64,000 nt of DNA. It comes from Bacteroides sp. SM23_62_1. Its GTDB lineage: Bacteria > Bacteroidota > Bacteroidia > Bacteroidales > SM23-62. Below are positions 31,168-33,861 of this stretch, piece after piece. Position 1 is the stretch's first letter. Every line of letters starts with the position of its first letter. The stretch lies in the NCBI GenBank assembly GCA_001304505.1, contig LJUQ01000001.1, positions 855 through 64,854 on the forward strand, given 5' to 3'. The position numbers were made by a program, and so were the translations under genes. The notes beneath the pieces were generated by a model. The model was not told where the DNA came from, did not search any database, and worked only from the letters and a program-made list of their open reading frames with translations.

Positions 31168-33861
31168 TTATTTTTCGTCTACAATTCTTTTAAGTCTGTC
31201 GATTTCTTTATTTGCTTCTTCAAGAAGTTGATATTTCAATTTTCTTTCGGTGATATCCTGTCCGAGATAGTAAACTTTAAAAATCGCACCATTTTCATCC
31301 TTTACCGGAGTAAATGTGGACATGATCCAGACTTCCTCTCCGGTAGGTTTTGTTCTTCTGATCACACCACTATATGGTTTATCTTTCATGATATCATTCC
31401 AGATCTTTTCAAACTGTTCTCTTTCTGTTCGTTGAAGGAATGTCCGGTTATTCTTTCCGATCATTTCCCTTCTTGAAAAGCCTGTTACTTTTTCAAAATT
31501 CTCATTGACTTCAAGAATCTGACCGGCCGGGGAATATACACATTTAATCAGGGCCTGGTCAACAGCATCACTGAAAGACTGCATTTCAATATTTGCTCTT
31601 TTAATTTCGCCTGACTGTTTTTCAAGTGATTCCTGCTGGATTTTTGTCTCCGTTATATCTATTGCGATATTCAGAACTTTAAATGGGACGCCATCTTTAT
31701 CAGGTATGGGAGCATATGTCTGCTGAAGCCATATTTCATTTCCGGTAAAAAGTTTGATTTTCTCCACTTTGAAAAGCGTTTTTCCCTCCCTCAGCAATTG
31801 CCAGAATTCCTTATAGGTTTCAGTATGCCGGCTAATCCCAAGGATTTCATGGTATTTTTTACCAATGATATGATCCTTATGTGTTTCGAGAAGAAGAAGG
31901 AATTTATCATTGATATTGATAAGTTCCTCATTCATATTATATTCTGCAACCAGTGAGGAATTATGAATAGCGTTGAGGATACCGGAGATCTCTGATTCGC
32001 GCCTTGCTGATTCTTCCTGTGTTACCTGTAATTCTTCTACATGCTGCCTCATCTTCTCTTCCTGTTCAGCCATATCCCGTGCCTGTTGCTGGGATTGTTC
32101 CAGCAACAGGCTGGTTCTCATGGTGATCCTGACAGAAGAGATGGCTGATGCAATGCTCTCACTGATAATTTCAATAAAAAGAACCTCATGTTCCTGAAGG
32201 ATATTTAAGGATGCAATCTCAATAACACCTAACAACTGATCTTCCAGCTTCAGCGGTACCAGAAGCAGACAACGGGGTTTGGTATCACCCAGGCCGGAAG
32301 TTATCCGAAGATATTCTTCCGGGATCTCTGTGAGGAAAATTTTTTGCTTTTCAATAGCACATGTTCCAACAAGACCTTCGCCAAGACGAACAGTATCCGT
32401 AAGGTATTTTTTCCTGTCAAATGCAAAAGCTGCAGCAAGCTCAAGTATATTCTCATCATCCGTATTTGTAAGATAAAGGGCACCAATACTGGCATTAAGA
32501 TATTTTACCAGATTTTGTATAACCTTATCAGCAAGTATGTTGAGATCATTACTGTGAATTCTCAGTATTTCTTCAATTTTTGCCAGTCCTTCGTTGATCC
32601 ATCTTCTTTTTTCACTTTCAGCCTGATGTTTCTGGTCCTCATTCCTTGCAGCCTGGAGATATTTGCCCATTTCAATTAAAGCATTTCCCAGTATATCCTC
32701 CTCGCTAAGTAATGGAAGTGTTACATCTTCCTGTTTCCTGCCTATTTCTCCAGCAAACCTTGCTTTTTCCTTGAGGTTGCCTGTAAAATTACCGAGCATC
32801 ATATTTATTTCGTATATCTCATCGTTTCCCTCGTCAGAAATTTCACCCGGTAACCGGCCCAGAACAAGTGCCTTGATAAAAGAATTTAATCTTCTGAGAG
32901 GATCCTTAATGGAAATGGAAAGAAAAATAGTGTAGGTGATTAAAATTGAAGCCGATAATAAAATCACAATAAAGAGTCCAATTCCAATATTCCTGCTGGC
33001 GGATATTAAATCCTGTTTAAACATCGCATTCAGTGAACTGGCATCTTCAGAAACAATATTACTGAAAGTTCTTATCTGACCCCTGATTCCTTCAAACTGG
33101 GATAATCCGATTTCACGATCAATGATAATAGTATTCTGAATGTACTGGCTTAGATTATTATTATTGTTGTTAACCCGTTGTTTTACAGATGTGCCAGCAA
33201 CAATCTGTGATACAACTAATTCTGAATCAATCAGGGAGTATATCTCTTGCAGTTTATCAGTTAGCTTTTTAGCGAGAGAGTGTGTGGGATTATGAAAATA
33301 TCCCTCAATAAAAATTTCTAATTGCTCTAATTCTGCCTGGAGGACAGGTCTGTTTGCGTTCTCCAGTATTTGAAATAAATCCTCCAAAAGGGATATGACA
33401 TGCCCATGAAGCCCCCAATTACTATATCCTCTTTCCCTTAACTTGGATACTAAGATCTGGAAGGTATTTTCAGTTTTAGAAAGGTTATCAAGAAAAAGTT
33501 CGAGTTTTTGATGTAACAATTCGTTTTTCTGAACAAACCGCTCTGTTTTCAGCTCCTGGACCAGGTTAATGGTTTCAAGATATATCCGGTCGAAATCATC
33601 CATATGCCCACTTCTGCCTGTTTCATAAAAAGCATTGGTGTACTGGTCATATAAAAGCAATCCTGTTATTGAACCGGATAATTGTTTTGAGTTGATGGAT
33701 AGTTCATTTAATCGTTCAGAAAGGGCATAATATTCACGGAATGTGCCCAGGAAACTGAATAATGAAAGACCAATTATCAACCAGAGGATAATGGAAGAGA
33801 CTGTAAGGGTAAAAAATCTTGACCTGATGGATATTTGCCTGAGTGACATTTTATGCTTCAA
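31168..33861 (-). CDS. Membrane sensor with a helical extracytoplasmic domain, HAMP, GAF, coiled coil and two PAS domains; no output domain
   Basis: 897 aa. TM1 at aa 17-40, a 250-aa helical loop, TM2 at aa 292-316. HAMP ([20 protein letters not shown]), GAF (GEGLVGT...LLLVPL), a Q/E coiled coil, then PAS repeats up to the stop codon. Confidence 0.8.
   Translation of the reverse strand: [897 protein letters not shown]

Follow-up and report, generated by a model that had tools for sequence, protein, structure and literature searches.

A gene for a large membrane sensor lies at 31168-33861 on the minus strand of a 64,000-nucleotide stretch of contig LJUQ01000001.1 (the window) from the metagenome-assembled genome (MAG) of Bacteroides sp. 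SM23_62_1, an assembly of 4.74 Mb that is 92% complete with 7% contamination. The sensor ends without an output domain, and its best-conserved part is a glutamate-rich signalling helix between a GAF domain and two PAS domains. As a first-pass annotation of the window had noted, the gene is located between two CheR genes (33960-34799 and 30320-31141); a CheB gene and a PP2C phosphatase gene belong to the same cluster. The reading that we favour, at somewhat better than even chances, is that the sensor is a receptor-only relative of RsbK-type sensors, whose helix would be methylated and demethylated by CheR1 and CheB and which would signal to the phosphatase by contact. Comparative genomics and the precedent of RsbK and its methyltransferase RsbM together provide good support for the methyl-acceptor idea.

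Domain architecture of the sensor

The sensor and its parts are as follows.

31168..33861, minus strand: sensor P0001, 897 aa from a TTG start; transmembrane (TM) segment, helical periplasmic domain, TM segment, HAMP-like helices, GAF, signalling helix (S-helix), PAS, PAS
32992..33738, minus strand: periplasmic all-helical sensor domain, aa 42-290 (~240 aa), between both hydrophobic segments
32632..32913, minus strand: HAMP-like helix-loop-helix region, aa 317-410; weak Pfam HAMP match, HAMP of homologues, AlphaFold
32137..32550, minus strand: GAF domain, aa 438-575; Pfam GAF_2, 57.1 bits
31984..32115, minus strand: signalling helix, the candidate methyl-accepting segment, aa 583-626 (44 aa), Glu/Gln-rich, between GAF and PAS
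31237..31974, minus strand: tandem PAS domains, aa 630-745 and 771-875; Pfam, PDB sequence search, Foldseek

An identical database protein has 893 aa and matches the ATG at 33849, which is probably the true start. Hydropathy analysis showed two hydrophobic segments and no more, at aa 14-42 and aa 284-319. The open reading frame (ORF), the hydropathy profile and the AlphaFold monomer, which is confident overall with a mean predicted local distance difference test score (pLDDT) of 84.9, agree with the first-pass description of an 897-aa protein with two TM helices around a helical extracytoplasmic domain, measured here as ~240 aa. This domain consists of helices only, modelled with a pLDDT above 90, and matched no Pfam family. 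The HAMP-GAF-coiled coil-PAS plan proposed in the same annotation holds for GAF and PAS, both recognized by Pfam. HAMP is under the Pfam threshold in the sensor itself (E 0.13, 13.1 bits vs. a cut-off of 25) and is carried by its homologues, many of which have a precomputed HAMP (PF00672) match. The AlphaFold model shows two helix-loop-helix units over aa 258-435, and the HAMP-like region so modelled probably comprises two units.

The Pfam match of the second PAS domain (PAS2) ends at aa 874, and the last 22 residues of the sensor are modelled as a single helix. Searches with Pfam, NCBIfam, PDB sequences and Foldseek found no output domain after the signalling helix, only the tandem PAS domains; the Foldseek matches were exclusively tandem-PAS structures. 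HisKA and HATPase_c are absent after the helix (Pfam, NCBIfam, Foldseek), and Pfam returned no receiver (Response_reg) domain in the sensor. The four negative searches bear out the earlier statement that no kinase, cyclase, phosphatase or DNA-binding domain follows the PAS repeats. The profile search for a cryptic C-terminal output domain, which the annotation had itself put forward as the check on its idea, was run and found none; such a domain behind the PAS repeats is ruled out, the region consisting of the tandem PAS and the 22-aa terminal helix only. Lacking any enzyme domain, the sensor must work through contact with other proteins. The sensor is also ruled out as a member of the methyl-accepting chemotaxis protein (MCP) family, Pfam having found no MCPsignal domain (PF00015) in it.

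PAS2 (31237-31551, minus strand, aa 771-875) is nearest to LOV domains (phototropin, YtvA). Compared with the LOV motif GRNCRFLQ, the PAS2 sequence GKNNRTFLQ is without the adduct-forming Cys and has one extra residue.

The signalling helix

Alignment of 56 diverse homologues showed that the helix is the best-conserved region of the family and the periplasmic sensor domain the least conserved, with mean top-residue frequencies of 0.76 for the helix, 0.66 for GAF, 0.41 for PAS1, 0.29 for PAS2 and 0.23 for the sensor domain. GAF holds 16 of the 30 invariant columns and the helix 11 (T583, L586, L587, Q600, E601, E602, R605, E609, E610, T614 and Q615). The first-pass placement of a Q/E-rich coiled coil at aa 584-626 (31984-32112) proved correct. 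A chance low-complexity Q/E tract is ruled out, since conservation across 56 to 114 homologues peaks in the helix. With the helix alone as query, a word-based search did not go beyond close relatives.

The heptad register of the family consensus places M597, M604, L611, x618 and I625 at the d positions. In this register the acidic pairs 588/9, 595/6, 602/3, 609/10, 616/7 and 623/4 occupy exposed b/c positions of six successive heptads, and the polar residues E601, Q615 and E622 are located at heptad a. The central pairs are at least 97% Glu across 114 receptor ORFs. Glu pairs at exposed b/c positions are not demanded by coiled-coil packing alone. Methylation sites of MCPs follow the consensus [ASTG]2-x2-[EQ]2-x2-[ASTG]2, and the heptad spacing of the Glu pairs agrees with the spacing of such sites. 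The earlier suggestion that the EE and QE pairs are plausible sites for CheR and CheB thus finds support in their conservation, their b/c exposure and the linkage to che genes, and it is weakened by an only partial match to the MCP consensus. In the AlphaFold monomer, residues 589-601 have low pLDDT and coincide with the most conserved stretch, as if this part might be ordered only in a dimer or a complex.

The sensor family

A full-length search gave 177 significant relatives. The best 120 of these share a plan of a variable sensor domain, HAMP, GAF, the helix and one or more PAS domains, and none of the 120 has an output domain. Members of 1,000-1,300 aa contain extra PAS domains only, and those of ~550 aa have HAMP and GAF matches only. 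The sensor domain is swapped among paralogues, being dCache, Cache3-Cache2 or unassigned helical domains. When 95 residues covering the GAF end and the helix were searched with HMMER in a set of 1.84 billion representatives, 1,950 proteins matched at E <= 1e-10; no output domain was found in the nine top matches scanned. A motif scan of species genomes yielded at least 568 relatives, the best 80 of them nearly all from Bacteroidota. The paralogues occur as orphans, in tandem arrays of two to four genes, or within the operon.

The SM23_62_1 genome contains a second full paralogue on contig C222. A degenerate paralogue (contig C39:874-2514, minus strand) has the sensor domain, the HAMP-like region and GAF and ends soon after GAF; its helix motif is decayed (SSAKPAGRDDELSPLS...), although the genome has CheR and CheB.

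Linkage of the helix module to CheR and CheB

The sensor belongs to a cluster of nine same-strand (minus) genes extending from 21859 to 34799. The nine-gene order is shared with a Bacteroidales MAG whose sensor is 37% identical, and ~16 of 79 related loci show it, either in full or truncated where the contig stops. A version with one CheR was seen in four genomes belonging to other families; in it, sensor(s), CheR, CheB, GAF protein, phosphatase, SiaB-like kinase, SiaC and TerB-ABC are encoded, the phosphatase to TerB-ABC part being seen where the contig reaches that far. Overall, three distinct architectures place the HAMP-GAF-helix module beside CheR/CheB genes.

A profile of the GAF end and helix matched 62 of 301 sampled genomes of the class. 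CheB is present in 51 of the 62 profile-positive vs. 46 of the 239 profile-negative genomes (Fisher p = 3e-20, uncorrected for phylogeny), in 10/10 genomes with strong profile matches and in 46/46 genomes with orphan or tandem paralogues. Hybrid kinases with lengths of 1,100-1,400 aa account for most of the weaker matches. The eight loci of this kind that were fetched all have CheR and a receiver-less CheB directly beside the hybrid kinase, and the eight kinases have the architecture [CHASE3, 4HB_MCP or NIT]-HAMP-GAF-long helix-HisKA-HATPase-REC x3. Successive EEL heptads make up the kinase helix, which can be aligned with the sensor helix, and the sensor module matches the same region of these che-adjacent kinases with BLASTP E values of 1e-13 to 1e-36. 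In four CheB-less genomes the kinase is located beside CheR alone.

The strict rule that the Glu helix is always accompanied by CheR/CheB is ruled out by one complete genome (G191) and by some ~2,100-aa kinases. A small look at CheR/CheB-free genomes showed motif decay in G258 (EEL to EVL and E to G) and an intact motif in G191. Many genomes of the class encode ~2,000-2,240-aa kinases with a related GAF and an EEL-heptad helix directly before HisKA and with no che neighbours (L099-L106; e.g. G064:C133:21500-22400). G249 and G282, which are without CheR and CheB, have a kinase helix shortened by one heptad, and the short form is also present in the CheB-positive G311.

In a CheR tree (97/96 support, midpoint rooting), CheR1 and CheR2 fall into one group with the kinase-associated CheRs, separate from the CheRs of full Che clusters and from an orphan third CheR of the SM23_62_1 genome; the CheR2 sequences form their own well-supported clade. 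The orphan (contig C15:14206-15042, minus strand) has canonical motifs and unrelated neighbours, and it groups with the CheRs of full Che clusters in a genome without MCP, CheW or a second CheB. In a Tenuifilaceae MAG (L048:751-11935), a full Che cluster of STAS, CheY, CheA, CheW, CheR, a kinase-like HATPase protein, CheD and REC-CheB is followed by a DUF4407 gene and a soluble GAF-helix-PAS x3 paralogue. The arrangement of CheR, REC-CheB and paralogue is common to six or seven loci, and the MAG of L048, which is also that of L049, has a two-CheR operon as well. As an independent link between che genes and the helix this arrangement was set aside as weak evidence only, the cluster being a full Che cluster with a DUF4407 gene in between.

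Neither MCPsignal nor a CheW domain was found in the 4.74 Mb of the SM23_62_1 genome, and the cluster has no CheA or CheW gene. Among 22 genomes with che-linked helix loci, nearly all 97-100% complete, 18 have no MCP domain. Confinement of the operon to MCP-free genomes is ruled out by the Bacteroidales, where 14 of 15 operon genomes have MCPs.

The gene cluster and the sensor phosphatase

The other genes of the cluster, with the helix of the phosphatase given separately, are as follows.

33960..34799, minus strand: CheR1; Pfam CheR 117.7 bits and CheR_N
30320..31141, minus strand: CheR2; Pfam CheR 71.6 bits, alignment to 5XLY
29760..30323, minus strand: receiver-less CheB methylesterase; Pfam CheB_methylest 144.8 bits
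28955..29752, minus strand: membrane-anchored GAF-only protein P0122; Pfam GAF_2 and translation, same position in orthologous operons
26331..28958, minus strand: sensor phosphatase P0123, 875 aa; TM, HAMP-like, GAF, S-helix, PAS, PAS, PP2C (SpoIIE), by Pfam
27870..28019, minus strand: S-helix of the phosphatase, the second candidate methyl-accepting segment, aa 314-363
25348..25932, minus strand: SiaB-family protein kinase; Pfam DUF6272 130.3 bits, NCBIfam SiaB_fam_kinase 157.8 bits (cut-off 85)
24963..25337, minus strand: SiaC-family regulatory phosphoprotein; Pfam SiaC 141.6 bits (cut-off 24.5), NCBIfam SiaC 90.8 bits (equivalog cut-off 150)
21859..24906, minus strand: TerB-ABC transporter fusion, 1,015 aa; Pfam

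Alignment of CheR1 with two CheR structures (5FTW, 1AF7) shows intact CSTGQE, ATDIN and CRNVVIYF motifs, which are also retained in 14 orthologues. On this sequence evidence CheR1 is likely a canonical CheR-type protein-glutamate methyltransferase and the predicted active enzyme of the cluster. The Asp of the CheR ATD motif is a ligand of the ribose of S-adenosylmethionine (SAM). This Asp is missing in all 17 CheR2 sequences, which retain STEMFRDP and SG[DE]E, and CheR2 has IRNQLLSF where CRNVxIYF is expected. CheR2 is a diverged CheR paralogue, perhaps only weakly active, perhaps a pseudo-enzyme or an adaptor. Aligned with solved CheB structures, CheB matches them at the Ser, His and Asp positions of the triad. 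The cluster's receiver-less CheB is the sole CheB of the genome, which has three CheR genes (CheR1, CheR2 and the orphan).

The first-pass annotation had described a similar Q/E coil behind the GAF domain of the phosphatase. The resemblance goes further and is one of homology: BLASTP aligned the phosphatase and the sensor with 31% identity over 547 aa, from the HAMP-like region (sensor aa 363) to PAS2. Judged by sequence, sensor and phosphatase are paralogues, the latter extended by a SiaA-like PP2C domain, which scores 145.8 bits against NCBIfam SiaA (equivalog cut-off 700). The motif NEE[QE]LRQNAEEMRATQEEL is kept in 14 phosphatase orthologues, in which position 334 is Gln in seven and Glu in seven. 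The copy in the SM23_62_1 genome has lost two Glu residues, E341 being replaced by Ile and E347 by Lys.

TerB-ABC is encoded directly downstream in orthologous operons, with synteny in at least 12 loci from several families, and the exporter is the best candidate for the output of the switch. In every complete orthologous operon seen, TerB-ABC comes after SiaC. No GGDEF gene was found among the nine genes scanned between 21859 and 34799. Two loci (L028:800-1936 and L041:377-1453) encode a double-length DUF6272 (SiaB-like) protein of 359-379 aa beside SiaC and a ~1,000-aa sensor paralogue, the L028 protein having two stretches matched by Pfam DUF6272.

Comparison with known systems

The closest precedent is Bacillus cereus RsbK, a CHASE3-HAMP-GAF-S-helix-HK-REC protein whose S-helix is methylated in vitro by the CheR-type RsbM, as shown with 14C-SAM (PMC4574943). 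Downstream of RsbK act the PP2C phosphatase RsbY and the partner switch RsbV/RsbW (PMC4574943, PMC12848376). RsbK-like kinases number 127 in 10 phyla, and RsbM has no paired esterase (PMC4574943). An association of RsbK and CheR in genomes was noted earlier, as cited in PMC12848376. Compared by architecture and literature description, the sensor resembles RsbK as a membrane-bound sensor in which HAMP and GAF lead into a Glu-rich signalling helix. Both systems have an adjoining CheR-type gene, located here on both sides of the sensor gene and kept in orthologous loci, and both have a PP2C phosphatase that drives a kinase/phosphoprotein switch downstream. The RsbK-like architecture itself recurs in the Bacteroidia hybrid kinases beside CheR, with or without CheB, whose helix is homologous to that of the sensor.

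Unlike RsbK, the sensor has neither a HisKA/HATPase core nor a receiver, and PAS domains follow its helix. Unlike RsbY, the SM23_62_1 phosphatase has no receiver and has its own HAMP-GAF-helix-PAS scaffold, which argues for the absence of a phosphotransfer step between sensor and phosphatase. Unlike RsbM, which is not paired with an esterase, the enzymes of the cluster include a CheB esterase and a second, degenerate CheR. In place of RsbW/RsbV with a sigma factor there is a SiaB/SiaC-type switch, with an ABC exporter as the conserved neighbour. The SiaABCD system of Pseudomonas aeruginosa likewise encodes a PP2C phosphatase, a SiaB-family kinase and SiaC together (PMC8457831; bioRxiv 10.1101/674879); it differs in having the diguanylate cyclase SiaD where the cluster has TerB-ABC. 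The cluster further differs from SiaABCD in the GAF, S-helix and PAS domains of its phosphatase and in the addition of CheR/CheB and a separate sensor.

The sensor family shares with MCPs a conserved cytoplasmic module that carries variable sensor domains and is without an enzymatic output, numerous paralogues within one genome (some of them in tandem arrays), Glu pairs in heptad spacing, and adjacent CheR and CheB. Unlike MCPs, the sensor has no MCPsignal domain and no hairpin four-helix bundle, and its helix joins GAF to PAS. In this respect it matches the signalling helix of Anantharaman, Balaji and Aravind (2006), defined as a coiled coil with a polar core that joins GAF, PAS and output domains (PMC1592074); the sensor helix agrees with this description in its ~40 residues between signalling domains and in its polar core. 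The near-invariant exposed b/c Glu pairs and the link to CheR/CheB genes set the sensor helix apart. Action of CheR outside MCPs is known from Salmonella, where CheR methylates adjacent acidic residues of PhoP (PMC8546571). Adjacent acidic residues would be the target in the sensor as well, whereas PhoP is a response regulator with no coiled coil and no dedicated operon (PMC8546571). Neither kinase-less receptors of this type nor a CheR/CheB-SiaBC cluster was found described in the open-access full-text literature, and no mention of DUF6272 was found in the open-access literature.

Discussion

The first-pass proposal of a methyl acceptor outside the MCP family agrees with every computational test made here, and RsbK/RsbM provides a precedent for it. 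Several observations weigh against methylation of the sensor helix. The MAG that carries the sensor is incomplete, as given above. The AlphaFold monomer falls below a pLDDT of 50 and loses the helix at aa 589-601 (32059-32097 of the window, minus strand). The MCP consensus is matched by half-sites only, AAQEEE (598-603) and EELQAT (609-614), and the key pairs are near-invariant Glu vs. the mix of E and Q typical of MCP sites. Every heptad face is conserved, including the polar a positions, which also suits a generic signalling helix (PMC1592074). EEL helices occur in at least one complete genome without CheR and CheB (G191) and in ~2,100-aa kinases away from che genes, and MCPs are present in 14 of the 15 Bacteroidales genomes with the two-CheR operon.

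Some of these observations would be expected if the helix were an ordinary signalling helix that relays conformational changes from GAF to PAS, the substrate of CheR/CheB being the phosphatase alone, the TM-GAF protein, SiaC or the TerB domain. S-helices with a polar core commonly join GAF and PAS (PMC1592074), the conservation of the sensor helix extends to all faces beyond the Glu pairs, and G191 has EEL helices with neither enzyme. The phosphatase has the same motif with an E/Q dimorphic position, and in the single-CheR operons the GAF and phosphatase genes come immediately after CheR-CheB. However, the sensor helix is better conserved than that of the phosphatase and keeps all Glu residues, whereas the phosphatase carries E341I and E347K. 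The HAMP-GAF-helix is the only element common to the three CheR-linked architectures, and RsbK is methylated on exactly such a helix (PMC4574943). We consider an ordinary helix unlikely, at about one chance in several.

It is less probable still that the sensor regulates the methylation enzymes rather than being their substrate, its ligand altering the binding of CheR1, CheR2 or CheB and so controlling methylation of the phosphatase. The position of the sensor gene between both CheR genes fits such a role, as do the loss of the SAM-binding Asp from CheR2 in all orthologues, by which CheR2 could be a binding protein, and the lack of a receiver in CheB, which calls for some other control. However, one-CheR operons of other families still keep the sensor, orphan and tandem paralogues far from che genes retain the Glu pairs, and we know of no precedent for such regulation. 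Least credible, and very improbable, is that the missing 8% of the MAG encodes classical chemoreceptors that the che genes serve, the adjacency of these genes to the sensor being incidental. Incompleteness of the genome leaves room for it, the Bacteroidales operon genomes do contain MCPs, and the Tenuifilaceae paralogue is located behind a full Che cluster. Against this, the 4.74 Mb contain neither MCPsignal nor CheW, the nearly complete genomes with such loci are mostly MCP-free (18 of 22), the cluster CheRs form a clade apart from those of Che clusters, and the synteny is kept across families.

Methylation of the sensor helix with contact signalling to the phosphatase thus stays the favoured reading, and we infer the following course from it. 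The variable periplasmic domain would sense a ligand, and the signal would pass through the HAMP-like helices and GAF to the dimeric signalling helix and the two PAS domains. The most likely contact partner is the sensor's own paralogue, the membrane phosphatase four genes downstream, which has the same HAMP-GAF-helix-PAS-PAS scaffold; the TM-GAF protein may also participate in this contact. The phosphatase, opposed by the SiaB-like kinase, would set the phosphorylation state of SiaC, and SiaC would control an effector, probably the conserved TerB-ABC exporter. CheR1 would methylate the exposed Glu pairs of the sensor helix (595/596, 602/603, 609/610 and 616/617) and likewise the phosphatase helix homologous to it. 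The receiver-less CheB would strip the methyl groups, giving a reversible set-point that could act as a bias, a memory or an adaptation step. CheR2, without the SAM-binding Asp, may serve as an adaptor. Such a system would depart from the RsbK/RsbM principle in being receptor-only, reversible through CheB, coupled to SiaB/SiaC and widespread in MCP-free genomes of the class.

A broader proposal, which we put forward tentatively and hold to be possible rather than probable, is that HAMP-GAF-Glu-pair helix proteins constitute a second, MCP-independent class of methyl-accepting receptors. In this class, many kinase-less paralogues that differ in their sensor domains would heteromerise through helix and PAS onto one membrane PP2C phosphatase, and a dedicated CheR/CheB clade would provide genuine sensory adaptation. 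If true, such a class would amount to a receptor network resembling chemotaxis that operates in the absence of CheA, CheW and motility, and the presence of CheB in about a third of the sampled genomes of the class would be accounted for.

Adaptation through CheR and CheB is regarded as a hallmark of chemotaxis receptors, and here the two enzymes are encoded beside a large sensor family in genomes that are without MCP, CheA and CheW. If the helix is methylated, reversible methylation would be a portable adaptation device for Ser/Thr phosphatase switches and histidine kinases, beyond CheA. The role of che genes in MCP-free genomes would then be explained, and RsbK/RsbM of B. cereus would be one example of a widespread principle.

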